Part shown: in pieces, positions 34,371-51,936 of the stretch
How positions within the stretch are numbered: position 1 is the first letter of the stretch
Layout of the letters: each line of letters begins with the position of its first letter
The notes under the pieces: generated by a model
The model's input: the letters and a program-made list of their open reading frames with translations, nothing else
The model's database searches: none
What the model was told of the DNA's origin: nothing
NCBI GenBank assembly: GCA_015370545.1
Contig: GCA_015370545.1_3932.1
Strand: one strand, 5' to 3'
DNA: 64,000 nt
Source: a phage
Position numbers and translations under genes: made by a program

Positions 34371-34394
34371 TAAAAAAGGCTCCCGAAGGAGCCT
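34371..34394 (-). terminator. intrinsic terminator (minus strand)
   Basis: reverse complement reads GGCTCC-TTCG-GGAGCC followed by TTTTTT. Confidence 0.65.
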
Positions 34395-34403
34395 ATGAAG
34401 ATA

Positions 34404-34868
34404 TTACTTTGGATATACACTGTCAAGATAAATGTCAGCTTCCATTCTACGTCTGTTTTTCAGACCGTTTGAAGTGACCTTCTTACCTTTGACTGTAACC
34501 TTGTTCCACCACTGCATAGCTTCTGCACAACCTACCTTATTACCAGCATTGTGGCGCTTGATAAATGTGGAATCCTGCATAGCTGTGATACCGATGTTGT
34601 ATGTTTCACTTACAAGTGCATCGAACTCATTCTGAGTAGTTGGAACCTTGATAGCTTTGTTCACTGCTGCAACAAACTTCTCAACATCCGCGAGAAGATA
34701 CTGTTCAGCTTGTTCAGCGGTGATTTTCATTCCCATCTTAACAGGTTTTCCGTCAATACGGATTGTACCATACCCGATTGTTGGGATTCCGGCAGAGTCT
34801 TCGTAAGCCTCTAACTCCAGACCTTCGAAGAACTTAATAGCTTCTAAACCTTTTCTTGAGAGTTGCAT
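34404..34868 (-). CDS. endolysin, T4-lysozyme-like (GH24)
   Basis: 154 aa; FEGLELEAYEDSAGIPTIGYGT carries the Glu/Asp/Thr triad spacing recalled for T4 lysozyme. Confidence 0.8.
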   Translation of the reverse strand: MQLSRKGLEAIKFFEGLELEAYEDSAGIPTIGYGTIRIDGKPVKMGMKITAEQAEQYLLADVEKFVAAVNKAIKVPTTQNEFDALVSETYNIGITAMQDSTFIKRHNAGNKVGCAEAMQWWNKVTVKGKKVTSNGLKNRRRMEADIYLDSVYPK

Positions 34869-35752
34869 TATGCCTCCCCTGCTGGGTTAACTGTAACTGT
34901 TGCCGCATTAGATGTTACAGAGCCACCTGCACCAGTAACTACACAAGTGTAGCTTCCTGCATCAGAAGCAGTTGCACCTTCTTTGGTGTAAGTTGCAGCA
35001 GTTGCGTCTGGGATGACTTCCTCACCTTTCTTCCACTGATAACCTGTTGCACCAGTTGCAGTCACTGCTAAATTGATGTTTCCACCTTCATTAATGGTCT
35101 GATTAGAAGGTTGCTGTGTAATCACAGGCAGCGCGTTCACAGTAACTGTTGCTGCATCTGAGGTGACACTTGTTCCACCATCTCCAGATACAACACAAGT
35201 GTATGAACCAGCGTCAGAAGGTGCTACGGATTGTTTTGTGTAAGTTGCAGAAGTGGCACTAGAGATGTCCTCACCATCTTTCTTCCACTGATAACCAGTG
35301 GCATTAGATGCAACAACACTCAGAGTAAGAGTTCCACCTTCATTGACTGTTTGGTTTGTTGGTTGCTGAGTGATTGATGGTGGTGTGATGGCATCTTTCA
35401 ACTTAGCATTCAACATTGAGAACGGCTTAACTCTTGCCAACCATTCACAGTAAATTGTGTCAACATCTTTACCGTTGATGATTGCATACTGTAAATCCAT
35501 GAAGAAATCAGCAGTTCTCATCTGTGCACCAACACTGTAAAGGAGTTCATCACTAAAAGGAACTTTGTAGTCTGGTTTGTAGTCAAACTTCTTAACTTCT
35601 GCGATATCAGCTTCAGGCCAATATGAGCTATAGGTGAGTGGTAAAATAGCTTCTTGATATGTTCTAAAATCATATCTCTTACCAGCCTTTACATTTGCGA
35701 TGAAGCCCTTCACAAATTCTTTGAAGTCTGGGTAAGTCTTTGCTTTAATCAT
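34868..35752 (-). CDS. protein with two C-terminal Ig-like domains
   Basis: 294 aa; N-terminal ~130 aa paralogous to 35749-36120; C-terminus has two repeats ITQQP.NQT.NEGG...YQWKK...AGSYTCVV. Confidence 0.55.
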   Translation of the reverse strand: MIKAKTYPDFKEFVKGFIANVKAGKRYDFRTYQEAILPLTYSSYWPEADIAEVKKFDYKPDYKVPFSDELLYSVGAQMRTADFFMDLQYAIINGKDVDTIYCEWLARVKPFSMLNAKLKDAITPPSITQQPTNQTVNEGGTLTLSVVASNATGYQWKKDGEDISSATSATYTKQSVAPSDAGSYTCVVSGDGGTSVTSDAATVTVNALPVITQQPSNQTINEGGNINLAVTATGATGYQWKKGEEVIPDATAATYTKEGATASDAGSYTCVVTGAGGSVTSNAATVTVNPAGEA

Positions 35753-36120
35753 TTCTTTTTAGCCTCTAAACGTGCGTTTAATCTAAAATAGCCTTTATGT
35801 TGTGGAGACACATCACCAACAACGATACCTTCAACTTTATAACCTTTACCGATTACATACTGGATATCCATAAGAAATGTACCAAGTCCTACAATGTGGA
35901 ACATTGGATATAATAACTTATCTGAATCTGGGAGATTAATATCTGGGTTGTAGGTAGGTTGTTTACTAGTAGGTGTAATATCTTCTTCAGGCCATTTACT
36001 TAGTCTCCATGTCAAAGGTGTTGGGATAACATCATTAAGATTGTACCTCCCACCATTCTCCACGGAGCGGATATAGGATTGTAGGAAGCAATAAAAGTCT
36101 TTTGCACTCTTAGCCTTCAT
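35749..36120 (-). CDS. hypothetical protein, paralog of 34868-35752 N-terminal domain
   Basis: 123 aa; shared MKAK..F...Y....GKRY, F.MD.QY.I, LNA.L motifs. Confidence 0.5.
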   Translation of the reverse strand: MKAKSAKDFYCFLQSYIRSVENGGRYNLNDVIPTPLTWRLSKWPEEDITPTSKQPTYNPDINLPDSDKLLYPMFHIVGLGTFLMDIQYVIGKGYKVEGIVVGDVSPQHKGYFRLNARLEAKKK

Positions 36121-36167
36121 TAAATATCCTTATAAATAGATAAAGGGGCGTTAGCCCCTGTTTACAC

Positions 36168-36758
36168 TTAAGCTTTGGTCTTAAGTAGGTTCTTAAGCTT
36201 TTTGAGATTCATGCTCTCATCAAACTTAAAACCAAATCCATTGACATAATCAATGAACTCGGATTTCTTACTAAGTGATAGTGCGTAACTCATATCGAAG
36301 TTATTACTTGTTTCTGCGTCTGGACTAGAGTTCACATCAAATGAAATTTCTGTAGGTTCTTGTTTGCTGCTTCTCATATTATCAATCAATAGACAGGTAT
36401 AGTTTGCCGGATAGAAGTTAACACTCCCATCAACATACCCATACTTATTATTGTGAATGAGGCTGGAAAATACCTTAAGAAATGTTTCTGCGTCGTGGCA
36501 TACAAGTTTGAATTGACTGCATTCACCAAGAGCCACTAAAGAGTAAGGGCTTTCACTATCAATGTCATAATTCGGATTTGATGTTGTAACCGTCACACGC
36601 ATCAGGTTATTGGCGATAGTCTTCTGCTTAAAAGAATTTGGAACATAGTGAAGACCTCTGTCACACTGATTAACTAACTCTTTCAATAGGTCGTTTGCAT
36701 ATGGTGAATTAATTGATACAGAGCCATCACTATTGTAATTAAAACTTACTGTTAACAT
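36168..36758 (-). CDS. hypothetical protein
   Basis: 196-aa ORF. Confidence 0.4.
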   Translation of the reverse strand: MLTVSFNYNSDGSVSINSPYANDLLKELVNQCDRGLHYVPNSFKQKTIANNLMRVTVTTSNPNYDIDSESPYSLVALGECSQFKLVCHDAETFLKVFSSLIHNNKYGYVDGSVNFYPANYTCLLIDNMRSSKQEPTEISFDVNSSPDAETSNNFDMSYALSLSKKSEFIDYVNGFGFKFDESMNLKKLKNLLKTKA

Positions 36759-49060: not shown

Positions 49061-50407
49061 ATGAGTTCGAATATCTTCAGACTTGCTGATAGATTATTCA
49101 ACCAACCTTTACTAGCCACTGAATCACTAGCTCACTCAGCAGCAACTTATGTGAATAACAGATTGCTGGGTGATGTCCAAGCAGCAGTAAACTTTGATAA
49201 ACCTAAAGGTGAAGCAAGAAGTCTTTTAAAAGTAAAAGATGATATTGCTATTATCCCTATTATGGGTGGCTTAACCCATCGTATGACATTCATTGATGCA
49301 ATGTGTACAGGCGGTTTAAGCTCTTATGAAGGTTTACGCAGAGGCTTTGACGAAGCTTTAGCAGATGAGTCAATTAAGACTATTGTTCTGCACATTGATT
49401 CTGGTGGTGGTGAAGCTTCAGGTTGCTTTGAATTAGCACGTCACATTATGGCTTCAAGAGGCCAAAAGAAAATTATTGCTTATGTAGATGAGTTCGCTTG
49501 TTCCGCTGCATATGCTCTTGCATCTTCTGCTGAAGAAATTATTGCATCACCAGATGCAGATGTTGGTTCTATCGGTGTAATCATGGTTCATCAGGAATTA
49601 ACTAAGGCATTTGAAAAGAATGGCGTAACAATTAACGTCATCAAAGCTGGTGAGTTTAAAGGTATGGGTTCACCATTCCAAGCACTTTCAGAAGAAAGCA
49701 AAGAAAGACTTCAAAAGAGAATTAATGATACCTACGCAACCTTTACAGGTTTTGTAGCCGAATCTCGTAATCTCTCTGAAGAAGCTGTAAAGAATACTGA
49801 GGCGAATGTTTATTCTGCTCAGGAAGCTCTTGAACTTGGTTTAATTAACTCAATCATGTCTCAAGATGATTTCTTAAATTACTTACAAGGTTCTGAAGAG
49901 GCTCCTGTAAGTTTAAACGTTAACAATTCAGGTGAAGAAATGACTGAACAAGAAAAGCAAGAACTAGAAGCTTTGCGTCTTCAGGTTGCTCAAATGAAAG
50001 CTAAAGAACAGGAAGCTGCTTTGTCAGATTTGACTAATAAGATTTCTGCTTCTGCTGAAGCTTTTGGATTTGATGCAAAAGAAGCTGCAACGACTATTTT
50101 AGGTGCTGGTCTTGACAACCCTCTGAGTGTTCTGTTTATGAATGCTATGGAAGGTGCTAACCAGAAACTTAATGAAACTATCGCGTCCCATGCTTCTGCA
50201 ATGGAAGAAAAAGAATCAGAAATTACCAAGCTGAAAGAAACTGCTGGTGCTGTTCTTGAACATTCCAACGCTATGGAAGAAGTGGGTAATGACGGCGAAG
50301 CTGATTTAGTTGAAGAAGAAAAAGAACCAGCTAAGAATGCTTCCGAAGACACCGCTGAACAACGCAAACTGGCTCTCCAGAATGCTCTAAAATCTCTTAT
50401 CAAATAA
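49061..50407 (+). CDS. prohead protease (S49/ClpP-like) fused to scaffold-like domain
   Basis: IVLHIDSGGGEASG...FACSAAYALAS resembles S49 peptidases; C-terminal half is coiled-coil-like and acidic. Confidence 0.65.
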   Translation: MSSNIFRLADRLFNQPLLATESLAHSAATYVNNRLLGDVQAAVNFDKPKGEARSLLKVKDDIAIIPIMGGLTHRMTFIDAMCTGGLSSYEGLRRGFDEALADESIKTIVLHIDSGGGEASGCFELARHIMASRGQKKIIAYVDEFACSAAYALASSAEEIIASPDADVGSIGVIMVHQELTKAFEKNGVTINVIKAGEFKGMGSPFQALSEESKERLQKRINDTYATFTGFVAESRNLSEEAVKNTEANVYSAQEALELGLINSIMSQDDFLNYLQGSEEAPVSLNVNNSGEEMTEQEKQELEALRLQVAQMKAKEQEAALSDLTNKISASAEAFGFDAKEAATTILGAGLDNPLSVLFMNAMEGANQKLNETIASHASAMEEKESEITKLKETAGAVLEHSNAMEEVGNDGEADLVEEEKEPAKNASEDTAEQRKLALQNALKSLIK

Positions 50408-50829: not shown

Positions 50830-51936
50830 ATGTTGACTAATTCTGAAAAAAGCAGATTTTTCCTTGCTGACCTGACTGGTGAAGTCCAGTCTATCCCAAA
50901 TACTTATGGGTATATTTCCAACTTAGGTCTGTTCCGTTCAGCACCAATCACCCAAACTACTTTCCTTATGGACTTGACTGATTGGGATGTTAGCTTGCTT
51001 GATGCGGTAGACCGTGATAGCCGTAAAGCAGAGACTAGCGCACCTGAGCGTGTTCGTCAAATCAGCTTCCCAATGATGTACTTCAAAGAAGTTGAAAGCA
51101 TTACTCCTGATGAAATTCAGGGTGTACGTCAGCCAGGCACTGCAAACGAACTGACTACTGAAGCTGTAGTACGTGCTAAGAAGCTGATGAAGATTCGTAC
51201 CAAGTTCGATATTACTCGTGAGTTCCTATTTATGCAAGCTCTGAAGGGTAAAGTTGTTGATGCTCGTGGTACTCTGTATGCTGACCTGTACAAGCAGTTC
51301 GATGTTGAGAAGAAGACTGTTTACTTCGACCTTGACAACCCTAATGCGGATATCGACGCTTCTATTGAAGAACTGCGTATGCACATGGAAGACGAAGCTA
51401 AGACTGGCACTGTAATCAACGGTGAAGAAATTCACGTAGTTGTTGACCGTGTGTTCTTCAGCAAGCTGACTAAACACCCTAAGATTCGTGATGCCTATCT
51501 TGCACAGCAGACCCCACTGGCTTGGCAACAGATTACTGGTTCTCTAAGAACTGGTGGTACTGACGGCGTTCAGGCTCACATGAACACTTTCTACTACGGT
51601 GGTGTTAAGTTTGTCCAGTACAACGGTAAGTTCAAAGACAAGCGTGGTAAGGTTCATACTCTGGTGAGCATTGATGGTGCTGGTGCAGAGGTTGGTGTAG
51701 GACACGCTTTCCCTAACGTTTCTATGCTGGGTGAAGCAAACAACATCTTCGAAGTGGCTTATGGCCCATGCCCTAAGATGGGTTACGCAAATACACTTGG
51801 TCAGGAACTGTATGTATTCGAATACGAAAAAGACCGTGATGAAGGTATTGACTTCGAAGCTCACTCTTACATGCTGCCATACTGTACTCGTCCTCAGTTG
51901 CTGGTAGACGTTCGTTCTGACGCTAAAGACGAATAA
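50830..51936 (+). CDS. major capsid protein (putative)
   Basis: 368 aa directly after the protease/scaffold gene; assigned by gene order. Confidence 0.6.
   Translation: MLTNSEKSRFFLADLTGEVQSIPNTYGYISNLGLFRSAPITQTTFLMDLTDWDVSLLDAVDRDSRKAETSAPERVRQISFPMMYFKEVESITPDEIQGVRQPGTANELTTEAVVRAKKLMKIRTKFDITREFLFMQALKGKVVDARGTLYADLYKQFDVEKKTVYFDLDNPNADIDASIEELRMHMEDEAKTGTVINGEEIHVVVDRVFFSKLTKHPKIRDAYLAQQTPLAWQQITGSLRTGGTDGVQAHMNTFYYGGVKFVQYNGKFKDKRGKVHTLVSIDGAGAEVGVGHAFPNVSMLGEANNIFEVAYGPCPKMGYANTLGQELYVFEYEKDRDEGIDFEAHSYMLPYCTRPQLLVDVRSDAKDE

Follow-up and report, generated by a model that had tools for sequence, protein, structure and literature searches.

The best-described relatives of the gene pair studied here are capsid decoration proteins of Felix O1-type phages. 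In Bas63 (Escherichia phage JohannRWettstein) and in the Shigella phage Sf14 (Mooglevirus), cryo-EM has placed the capsid-binding domain (CapBD) of the proteins called Hex-Dec and gp20, respectively, in the centers of hexamers (PMC12609058, PMC11821841). Sf14 gp20 (chain S of 9C2D and 9C3A) was also found in virions by MS, sits on pentamer-proximal hexamers only, and has the Hex-Dec-type pair Arg79 and Arg107 matched with Asp221 of the major capsid protein (PMC11821841). In Felix O1, gp36 was recovered from purified virions by MS (14 peptides, 44% coverage) according to the 2010 report (PMC3185647); the reported mass of 31.6 kDa agrees with the 31,458 Da that we computed. The position of the Hex-Dec gene outside the structural module was remarked on in the literature of 2010 and 2025, and its variable number of Ig domains in that of 2025.

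Two better-known decoration proteins invite comparison. Like Hex-Dec, T4 Hoc is a non-essential monomer at hexamer centers, in which a small capsid-binding domain is joined to a string of Ig-like domains forming an acidic fiber, and its number of Ig domains varies among relatives. However, the CapBD of Hoc is C-terminal, so that its domain order is opposite to that of Hex-Dec, and Hoc is an analog of Hex-Dec, not a family member. We know of no CapBD-only paralog of Hoc. The CapBD of Hex-Dec is topologically distinct from that of Hoc, with minimal sequence similarity (PMC12609058). T5 pb10 (5LXK, 8ZVI) has one Ig domain only, against two in the protein described below, and its capsid-binding domain has no detectable homology to that of Hex-Dec.

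The window, by which we mean the whole stretch of 64,000 nucleotides that was analyzed, comes from a Felixounavirus, a Felix O1-like myophage, and the locus is carried by 253 records of Felix O1-like phages. A preliminary description, made from the letters alone, had read two open reading frames on the minus strand, beside the endolysin and away from the structural module. Both are present at the coordinates stated, with 123 and 294 aa (Table 1), and their neighborhood is as it was described: the next gene encodes a Phage_lysozyme protein, and the major capsid protein gene lies 15 kb from the Hex-Dec gene on the opposite strand. Bas63 has the same gene order (short copy, Hex-Dec, lysin), more than 10 kb from its structural module (PMC12609058), and Felix O1 the same layout, with gp36 (two Ig domains) and gp37 being 93% and 87% identical to the window proteins. 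The endolysin ATG shares one base with the Hex-Dec stop codon (TAATG) and is preceded by GGGGAGG.

Terminator-like hairpins stand on both sides of the three genes. The upstream one is also kept in Bas63, mio and Tf and carries a terminator annotation in Michonne, which has another at the position of the post-endolysin hairpin. At the same position, Felix O1 has a hairpin of closely similar sequence upstream of gene 37, entered as rho-independent in the terminator table of its report (PMC3185647). As a promoter candidate for the gene trio, the AT-rich motif CTATTTATAAGG that follows the upstream hairpin was rejected, being not enriched in the window (12 matches vs 7.9 expected), and a sigma-70 scan gave chance level (9 matches vs 9.5 expected). 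The upstream 196-aa protein has no NCBIfam or PADLOC match. A link of the locus to DRT7 was considered and rejected, the DRT7 escape mutants of Bas63 mapping to Bas63-035.

Table 1. Features of the locus and of its predicted capsid partner, in window coordinates.
Feature	Coordinates	Strand	Basis
Short paralog, 123 aa, CapBD fold only, without Ig	35749..36120	-	phrog_4463
Long copy, Hex-Dec ortholog, Hoc-like hexamer-center capsid decoration protein, 294 aa	34868..35752	-	phrog_3995
CapBD of Hex-Dec, residues 1-120, with Arg79 and Arg107	35393..35752	-	aligned to modeled residues 1-120/122 of 9c2d_S and 9ncf_S
Ig-like domain 1, residues 124-207	35132..35383	-	Pfam Ig_3/I-set, pLDDT ~90
Ig-like domain 2, residues 208-294, Ig2/Ig4 chimera	34871..35131	-	identity to Bas63 Ig2, Ig4
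Inferred recombination junction between repeat units	35036..35060	-	diagnostic nucleotide sites
ATGA overlap, short-copy stop / Hex-Dec start	35749..35752	-	sequence read
Endolysin, Phage_lysozyme, 154 aa	34404..34868	-	Pfam PF00959 E 4.5e-41; phrog_7
GC-rich hairpin and T-run, terminator-like, between upstream 196-aa gene and short copy	36144..36159	-	
Terminator-like hairpin and T-run, directly after endolysin	34377..34394	-	
Major capsid protein, 368 aa, predicted docking partner of Hex-Dec	50830..51936	+	Pfam Phage_cap_E E 3e-78

The long copy is Hex-Dec, the already-described capsid decoration protein of Felix O1-type phages. It is ~95% identical to Bas63 Hex-Dec (PDB 9NCF chain S) over residues 1-290, matches 9ncf_S (E 4e-246) and 9c2d_S (E 3e-185) in a phmmer search of the PDB, aligns to phrog_3995 over its full length (E 1e-169) and is homologous to Sf14 gp20 (9C2D chain S) and Felix O1 gp36; nothing was found that contradicts this assignment. 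It shares with Bas63 Hex-Dec the CapBD, the first Ig domain and the terminal Ig domain (PMC12609058), the Bas63 protein having four Ig domains (460 aa) compared with two (294 aa) in the window. Sf14 gp20 has the same CapBD with Arg79 and Arg107 (PMC11821841) and three Ig domains, and its Ig region is much more diverged from that of the window protein (dN 0.31 vs 0.08 for the CapBD). The Hoc-like PHROGs (2973, 4069, 3945) align to residues 121-292 of the long copy only, i.e. to the Ig region, and the T5 pb10 structures 5lxk_A and 8zvi_a match only its Ig residues ~215-291 (E ~1e-11).

A comparison of 11 Hex-Dec sequences shows no variation at Arg79 or Arg107, and in the window's major capsid protein residue 221 is Asp. 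Given orthologs that are 93-95% identical, the long copy would be a monomeric, Hoc-like decoration protein of a T=9 head, whose N-terminal CapBD of ~120 residues would plug the centers of the pentamer-proximal (edge) hexamers by docking Arg79 and Arg107 against Asp221. Its two acidic Ig domains would reach outward as a short flexible fiber and, by analogy with T4 Hoc, probably let the particle adhere weakly to glycans, to surfaces or to other particles. This part of our findings is already known, since the structure of Hex-Dec, its off-module position and its variable number of Ig domains have all been published; for the same reason, a surface protein beside the lysin is a puzzle that is already documented.

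The two tandem ~85-aa repeats that had been reported in the long copy are indeed of I-set type: Pfam finds Ig_3 (E 2e-23), Ig_2 (1e-19) and I-set (2e-16) in two stretches each. The proposed Ig fold is confirmed by structure prediction, the AlphaFold2 model reaching pLDDT ~90 over residues 123-290, with tandem I-set Ig modules (e.g. Robo, titin, Sidekick, E ~1e-14) as the best PDB matches of its Ig part in Foldseek. The extension, whose variability the preliminary description had proposed to check, does vary in relatives, with Hex-Dec lengths of 210, 294, 377 and 461 aa.

Comparison of the repeats shows how this variation arises. Residues 124-207 and 208-294 have 57 of 85 residues in common (67%, a figure that holds for the DNA as well as for the protein), and both carry GYQWKK and DAGSYTCVV. 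The first domain is 91-92% identical to Bas63 Ig1, while the second is composite, its N-terminal half being 94% identical to Bas63 Ig2 and its C-terminal half 91% identical to Bas63 Ig4. A single breakpoint accounts for 77/81 diagnostic nucleotide sites in the comparison with SME50 and for 69/77 in that with Bas63, with crossover intervals at 35054-35060 and 35036-35042, respectively, and the crossover lies within a conserved stretch encoding ATGATGYQWKK. The second Ig domain of the window is thus a recombinant of Ig2 (N-terminal) and the terminal Ig4 (C-terminal) of four-domain relatives, and the number of Ig domains therefore changes through homologous recombination, in frame, of one repeat unit with another.

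The short gene is a CapBD on its own. Paralogy with the long copy, as claimed in the preliminary description, stands (44/121 identities, 36%, E 2e-16 by BLASTP), and phrog_4463 and phrog_3995 cross-match reciprocally (E ~1e-15), but the shared length is ~120 aa, not the 130 originally given: residues 1-119 of the short copy align to 2-119 of the long one. In the PDB, phmmer retrieves only the CapBD of 9ncf_S (E 1.7e-12) and 9c2d_S (E 2e-11), and 9c2d_S and 9ncf_S are also the top two Foldseek matches (TM 0.50) of an AlphaFold2 model of the short protein, whose confidence is low (pLDDT 57). There is no Ig domain, the protein ending at residue 123 with no Pfam match, and all 51 clusters of the family fall between 88 and 124 aa. 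Orthologs occur in three genera and include Felix O1 gp37, Sf14 gp21 and bas63_0125. No remark that gp36 and gp37 are paralogs was found in the passages of PMC3185647 that were searched, and the literature that we consulted does not discuss the short copy as a Hex-Dec paralog.

Remote relatives bear on which copy came first. They were reached by an exhaustive profile search, word-indexed searches having given close relatives only. The contigs that carry the remote relatives P0097 and P0099 keep one arrangement: DUF2828/DUF5681 <> 62 aa, ~185 aa and, after these, a single CapBD gene. It is the last gene on the contigs with P0097, whereas on those with P0099 it is followed by a Phage_lysozyme gene. 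Four of five outgroup proteins are 29-37% identical to the long copy vs 25-26% to the short copy, and the fifth, P0099, is 26% vs 25% identical; this last CapBD protein is single-copy and has no Ig domain at all. A further candidate from the profile search, P0098, was rejected as a repeat artifact, and the gene upstream of the remote relative P0094 is not a CapBD paralog. As the outgroups are single-copy, the short copy is the derived one, a later tandem duplicate retaining only the CapBD fold. As single-CapBD relatives show the same placement, the site beside the endolysin is ancestral in this phage group; this is why the Hex-Dec gene adjoins the endolysin, and no part in lysis should be read from its position.

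Since duplication, the short copy has been conserved but altered where Hex-Dec docks. Its dN/dS is 0.09-0.135 and it is under purifying selection; in dN, it outpaces the CapBD 2- to 4-fold. At 36 positions the short-copy and Hex-Dec families are fixed differently. The EWLARVKPF block of Hex-Dec reads DVSPQHKGY in short copies, which thereby lack the K-P-[FY] motif (HKGY in place of VKPF). Arg79 is replaced by Gly78 in 18 of the 19 aligned short copies, with a gap in the other one, and the position of Arg107 usually holds Gln, with His or Arg in a few of these 19. The pI of short copies ranges from 5.1 to 9.1, and net charge gives no consistent separation from the long copy across genera.

The gene also keeps its link to Hex-Dec. 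The 4-nt ATGA overlap is annotated in EF202P1, SME50, Phi87, VpaE1, Sf14, Michonne and Bas63, and stop/start coupling is conserved in three genera and in one diverged metagenomic relative; the short copy thus appears to be translationally coupled to Hex-Dec and would be translated just before it. It is most likely dispensable: it is missing from ~16-20 of the 253 relatives, and in mio and Tf, both viable and the two lacking phages that were inspected, only a degraded remnant of it is left. In both, the CapBD of Hex-Dec shows no compensating change, a weak argument against the two proteins being obligatory partners.

Expression and virion data come from Felix O1. According to Table 3 of PMC3185647, a semi-quantitative RT-PCR series, ORFs 36 and 37 reach their expression maximum at 60 min and the flanking ORFs 35 and 38 at 25 min. 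A literature search for a Felix O1 transcriptome returned nothing relevant, and this report supplies the sole expression data found. The short copy would thus be transcribed late, together with Hex-Dec. The 17 virion proteins of Felix O1 do not include gp37, although it would give 7 suitable tryptic peptides (83% coverage), and smaller proteins were detected in the same proteome. Peptides to be expected of the short protein include WPEEDITPTIEQR and FLMDIQYVIGK. The short copy is not mentioned as structural for Sf14 or Bas63 (PMC11821841, PMC12609058), and in VpaE1 it is annotated as hypothetical and is not among the structural proteins listed. Its absence from virions is read from one stringent MS set (coverage of at least 25%) and from the silence of three other studies. 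The short copy does not seem to enter the virus particle; it may still be a low-copy or loosely bound component. The preliminary description implied that the Ig protein is exposed on the virion surface, which MS and cryo-EM of orthologs bear out for the long copy; the short one went undetected in the Felix O1 virion proteome, and the pair is therefore not two surface proteins.

Altogether, we consider this account very probable, with the long copy as Hex-Dec and the short copy as, most likely, a duplicated, non-structural late accessory factor. For the short protein, this reading follows from its conservation, the replacement of its docking residues and its absence from virions; it is most likely dispensable as well. 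It may act transiently on the same partners, either the hexamer center before capsid maturation or Hex-Dec itself, and could affect when or where Hex-Dec is loaded. Tentatively, no earlier case may have been described of what the short gene would represent, a decoration protein's anchor domain that duplication turned to a new use as a morphogenesis factor, made late and kept out of the virion, of which a transient plug of procapsid hexamer centers or a Hex-Dec loading or timing factor would be examples.

The short protein could instead have a function unrelated to the capsid, such as host-protein interaction or counter-defense, and stay beside Hex-Dec only through its origin by tandem duplication. 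The 36 differently fixed positions and the raised dN suit such a role, as do its absence from the Felix O1 virion proteome and its dispensability in a lineage from several hosts, as accessory genes often are. We consider it unlikely: the short copy has no match in PADLOC, NCBIfam or Pfam, the sole defense trigger reported for Bas63 in the literature consulted is Bas63-035, which lies elsewhere, and late expression with morphogenesis genes and conserved coupling to Hex-Dec fit a morphogenesis-linked role better.

Less likely than the accessory role, and quite improbable in our estimate, is a hidden Ig-less decoration, in which the short protein occupies the 20 facet-center (true three-fold) hexamers without Hex-Dec in the mature virion and was overlooked since a monomer on a symmetry axis blurs under icosahedral averaging. 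It has the fold and is made late with Hex-Dec, the residues that give Hex-Dec its edge-hexamer specificity are exactly those replaced, and Asp221 is positioned differently in the true three-fold hexamers of Sf14 (PMC11821841); the single-copy, Ig-less P0099 protein indicates that an Ig-less CapBD can be the only form. Yet averaging would not erase an axial protein, which should remain as a blob on the axis, Bas63 has no density at the hexamers that lack Hex-Dec (PMC12609058), and the short copy is unlisted among the structural proteins of Sf14 or VpaE1 and, despite its 7 good peptides, among the Felix O1 virion proteins.

More improbable still is competition for the edge hexamers, where a mixture of fibered and fiberless plugs would set the density of Ig fibers. 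Both proteins share the fold and are co-translated from a single message, in which the stop codon of one overlaps the start codon of the other, so that they should be produced in roughly equimolar amounts. However, the edge-hexamer density of Bas63 and Sf14 was resolved enough to build Hex-Dec and gp20, and mixing in a 36%-identical protein should have degraded it; moreover, the short copy lacks the docking arginines and was undetected in Felix O1 virions. A last reading makes both of them tail proteins, as PHROGs and the majority of database records do: the name given to phrog_3995 is 'tail protein', likewise in RefSeq and UniRef, 'HK97 major tail subunit' stands in the original record of Felix O1, and gp36 was taken for a tail protein in 2010 (PMC3185647). 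It has practically no chance of being right. The structures 9NCF and 9C2D, now solved, refute it, with the long-copy ortholog in capsid hexamer centers (PMC12609058, PMC11821841), and the label was propagated from an Ig-domain match, tail-family similarity being limited to the Ig part (residues ~96-207 for phrog_158 and phrog_853).

The main object of this locus, a structurally solved Hoc-like decoration protein, needs no further discovery work; in practice, PHROGs, RefSeq and UniRef should rename this 'tail protein' a 'hexamer decoration protein'. The chimeric repeat junctions, which show that Ig copy number changes by in-frame intragenic recombination, are a small point beyond the literature consulted, and such change matters if Hex-Dec serves as a display scaffold, as Hoc and pb10 do. 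Also beyond that literature is the adjacent 123-aa gene, a conserved, late and apparently non-virion paralog of the anchor domain in which the docking residues have changed. With mio and Tf as natural null phages, it offers a cheap experimental handle on how a monomeric decoration protein picks a subset of hexamers and, if the short protein is indeed a loading or plug factor, it would help explain why Hex-Dec is found on edge hexamers only.

A 3.2-kb query around the gene pair matched 253 phage records, nearly all of them Felixounavirus, Mooglevirus or Suspvirus (best match, 95.8% identity), and the window is a Felix O1-like myophage. The record of 'Staphylococcus phage' SA1, which provides best matches for proteins of the related phage VpaE1, was also among the Felix O1-like matches; its genome seems to be of Felix O1 type and wrongly attributed. 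The preliminary description placed two paralogous genes beside the endolysin and away from the structural module; both reading frames and this layout were recovered as described, with the capsid genes 15 kb off on the opposite strand (see table). Short copy, long copy and lysin form a tightly packed trio, in which the lysin start overlaps the long-copy stop (TAATG, preceded by GGGGAGG), and a terminator-like hairpin lies on either side. Terminators are annotated at both equivalent positions in the record of the related phage Michonne, and the upstream one figures in the Felix O1 terminator table (PMC3185647). This conserved upstream hairpin ends just 24 nt ahead of the short-copy start codon, and no recognisable promoter was found between the two. 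Felixounavirus, Mooglevirus and Suspvirus all keep the order short copy, long copy, lysin, as does an 87-kb metagenomic phage that is more diverged. Further along, a cluster of tRNA genes (22 are reported for Felix O1; PMC3185647) separates the divergent promoter region from the genes for packaging and structure; just upstream of this cluster, the DUF5681 and DUF2828/DUF7788 genes (the latter labelled vWFA or 'RNA-binding protein' in other records) diverge from the module of the long copy.

Features around the gene pair and in the capsid region
Feature	Position	Strand	Remark
Terminator-like hairpin downstream of trio	34394-34377	-	
Endolysin (Phage_lysozyme)	34404-34868	-	Pfam E 4.5e-41
Long copy (Hex-Dec)	34868-35752	-	294 aa
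Inferred breakpoint in Ig unit 2	35036-35060		within ATGATGYQWKK-coding stretch
ATGA overlap, short-copy stop / Hex-Dec start	35749-35752	-	
Short copy	35749-36120	-	123 aa
Terminator-like hairpin upstream of trio	36159-36144	-	
phrog_4034 protein	36168-36758	-	196 aa, unknown function
DUF5681 protein	37378-37749	+	
DUF2828/DUF7788 protein	37831-39246	+	471 aa
tRNA cluster	39412-43762	+	24 genes
S49 protease	49061-50407	+	
Phage_cap_E major capsid protein	50830-51936	+	

The paralogy of the two genes held (BLASTP, 36% identity, E 2e-16), over about 120 residues and not the ~130 first proposed: residues 1-119 of the short protein align to residues 2-119 of the long one, and in PHROG searches either copy also matches the family of its partner (E about 1e-15). 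The two tandem Ig repeats claimed for the long copy were found at residues 124-207 and 208-294, where Pfam gives two matches apiece to Ig_3, Ig_2 and I-set (E 2e-23 to 2e-16); the units are alike at 57 of 85 residues (DNA identity is likewise 67%), and both carry GYQWKK and DAGSYTCVV. Structure prediction bore out the Ig fold, with a pLDDT of about 90 over residues 123-290 of a single-sequence AlphaFold2 model whose best PDB matches were tandem I-set modules of Robo, titin and Sidekick (E about 1e-14). Against PDB sequences, phmmer matched the long copy to chain 9ncf_S of the Bas63 capsid (E 4e-246, ~95% identity over residues 1-290) and to 9c2d_S of the Sf14 capsid (E 3e-185). In Bas63 this protein, named Hex-Dec, sits as a monomer at the centre of the facet-edge hexamers of a T=9 capsid, and its gene lies >10 kb outside the structural module (PMC12609058). 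Equivalent findings were reported for Sf14 gp20, which was detected in virions by MS and whose Arg79 and Arg107 salt-bridge to Asp221 of the capsid protein; that gp20 is kept off the true three-fold hexamers was attributed to displaced Asp221 side chains (PMC11821841). Both arginines are present in the window protein and in 11 of 11 orthologues compared, and the window major capsid protein has Asp221. Because it shows every family feature testable here, the long copy can be assigned to the Hex-Dec/gp20 family. It is an already published protein, and the puzzle raised earlier, a surface Ig protein encoded beside a lysin, is real, though already documented in the literature.

The order of genes in Felix O1 makes gp35 the lysin, gp36 the Ig protein and gp37 the short copy; among virion proteins, the 2010 genome paper had identified gp36 ('tail protein', 31.6 kDa) at 44% coverage (PMC3185647), in agreement with a computed mass of 31,458 Da. 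'Tail protein' is widely used for both genes (phrog_3995, RefSeq and UniRef, the short copy carrying the same name in UniRef), gp36 being named 'HK97 major tail subunit' in the original Felix O1 record, and tail-protein PHROGs align to the Ig region only of the long copy. This label is wrong: it goes back to a match to an Ig domain and is at odds with the capsid position seen by cryo-EM. The Bas63 paper regards Hex-Dec function as probably T4 Hoc-like (PMC12609058), and by this analogy the Ig fibre may have an adhesive role. T4 Hoc and T5 pb10 work alike, but the long copy stands outside both families: Hoc-like PHROGs and pb10 PDB chains match the Ig region only, and the domain order of Hoc is reversed relative to Hex-Dec (PMC12609058).

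The Ig extension also proved variable, with Hex-Dec lengths of 210, 294, 377 or 461 aa in close relatives and 1 to 4 Ig domains reported within the genus (PMC12609058). When Ig units were divided at the conserved YQW motif and compared part by part, the N-terminal part of window unit 2 was 94% identical to Bas63 Ig2 and its C-terminal part 91% identical to Bas63 Ig4; one breakpoint accounts for 77 of 81 diagnostic nucleotide sites against the related phage SME50 and 69 of 77 against Bas63. VpaE1 unit 2 is Ig4-type from its first base onward. Since one unit 2 has an Ig2/Ig4 breakpoint and the other is wholly Ig4-type, two-domain forms arose at least twice, when repeat units recombined in frame in different registers. 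As to the mechanism, the Sf14 paper had not decided between capture of a host gene and loss by way of stop codons (PMC11821841). Some database Hex-Dec entries (P0070, P0075 and P0079, 138-209 aa) are frameshifted or truncated within the first Ig domain and may represent natural variants almost devoid of Ig or errors of assembly; P0076 (121 aa) may be incomplete because of a contig end.

A profile built from short copies and capsid-binding domains (CapBDs, the N-terminal ~120 residues of Hex-Dec) found only 13 clusters among 1.84 billion representative proteins (E up to 1e-3), and the CapBD fold is therefore confined to a narrow phage group. Remote members join the CapBD to differing modules: Big_2 (P0094, P0095), an I-set-type Ig domain (P0096), a Big-like domain (P0097) or, without any Ig domain, a Lys-rich tail (P0099). 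The P0097 and P0099 contigs match the window order, with DUF2828/DUF7788 and DUF5681 genes diverging from a 62-aa gene, a ~185-aa gene and a single CapBD gene; a Phage_lysozyme gene comes next in the P0099 contigs, and in those of P0097 the CapBD gene is the last. As these contigs keep the window's local order, a decoration gene adjoining the lysin is the ancestral arrangement in the group and no pointer to a lysis function. The phrog_4034 gene always stands ahead of the CapBD gene(s), also in remote single-copy relatives, where its ~185-aa counterpart gives a faint Phage_Inh_N Pfam hint; the Felix O1 counterpart, gp38, is of the middle expression class, and genes 36 and 37, beyond the hairpin, belong to the late one (PMC3185647). 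A few kb past the Hex-Dec/lysin module, on its downstream side, a Gad1 (anti-Gabija) Pfam gene was seen in two metagenomic Ounavirinae-like contigs (L011:11510-12369 and L012:8967-9826) of a diverged relative encoding P0092 and P0093.

The short copy (phrog_4463, 'unknown function'; orthologues Felix O1 gp37, Sf14 gp21 and bas63_0125) is homologous to the CapBD only, by BLASTP against the long copy and phmmer against the PDB. Its AlphaFold2 model was poor (pLDDT 57), and Foldseek of this model against 350,542 PDB chains placed 9c2d_S and 9ncf_S on top (probability 0.99 and 0.97, TM 0.50), with no scoring match beyond them. The Sf14 paper does not mention gp21 (PMC11821841); in the available text of the Bas63 paper 'paralog' does not occur, and the matches listed for 'duplicat' all concern cryo-EM particle processing (PMC12609058). 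Since the single-copy outgroups are without a short copy and four of five clearly resemble the long one more (29-37% identity vs 25-26%; P0099, 26% vs 25%), the short copy is the derived duplicate. It is also a maintained gene: its dN/dS across genera (0.09-0.135) is similar to that of the lysin (0.04-0.10), the CapBD being tighter (0.03-0.06). Both families have one and the same invariant residue at 33 positions, as would fit a common core of the fold, and 36 are fixed differently, among them Arg79 -> Gly78 and the block around Arg107 (EWLARVKPF -> DVSPQHKGY); also gone is the [RK]-x-K-P-[FY] motif that long copies have in common with most single-copy proteins. In about 16-20 of the 253 records the sole short-copy match was the Hex-Dec CapBD itself, and in the related phages mio and Tf a remnant persists, its start codon gone and ~230 bp deleted internally, which retains the 3' end bearing the Hex-Dec ribosome-binding site; no compensating change was found in the Hex-Dec CapBD of these two phages. 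The short copy is thus dispensable. It shares the anchor fold of the Hex-Dec family but lacks two defining features, Ig domains and docking residues, and the fitting description is CapBD paralogue, not decoration protein.

In Felix O1, expression of ORFs 36 and 37 is maximal at 60 min, with the portal and tail-fibre genes, and the ORFs on either side, 35 and 38, reach their peak at 25 min (PMC3185647). Altogether, the short copy is a CapBD-only duplicate that is conserved, transcribed late and dispensable, and its docking surface has been remodelled. Felix O1 gp37 is absent from the 17 virion proteins listed in the genome paper, in which 9.7- and 11.7-kDa proteins were detected (PMC3185647), and yet a tryptic digest of gp37 is predicted to give seven suitable peptides, with a coverage of 83%; the accessible literature on Felix O1-like phages does not report its presence in virions. 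We tentatively propose that the short protein could act transiently in head morphogenesis, on pre-maturation capsid hexamer centres or on Hex-Dec, and leave the particle. An unrelated accessory function is somewhat less likely. Bas63 shows no density on hexamers unoccupied by Hex-Dec (PMC12609058); hidden decoration of the facet-centre hexamers is improbable, and competition at the edge hexamers is about equally so. What is new here is modest, namely an undescribed paralogy of Hex-Dec with a small late gene and direct evidence of repeat recombination.
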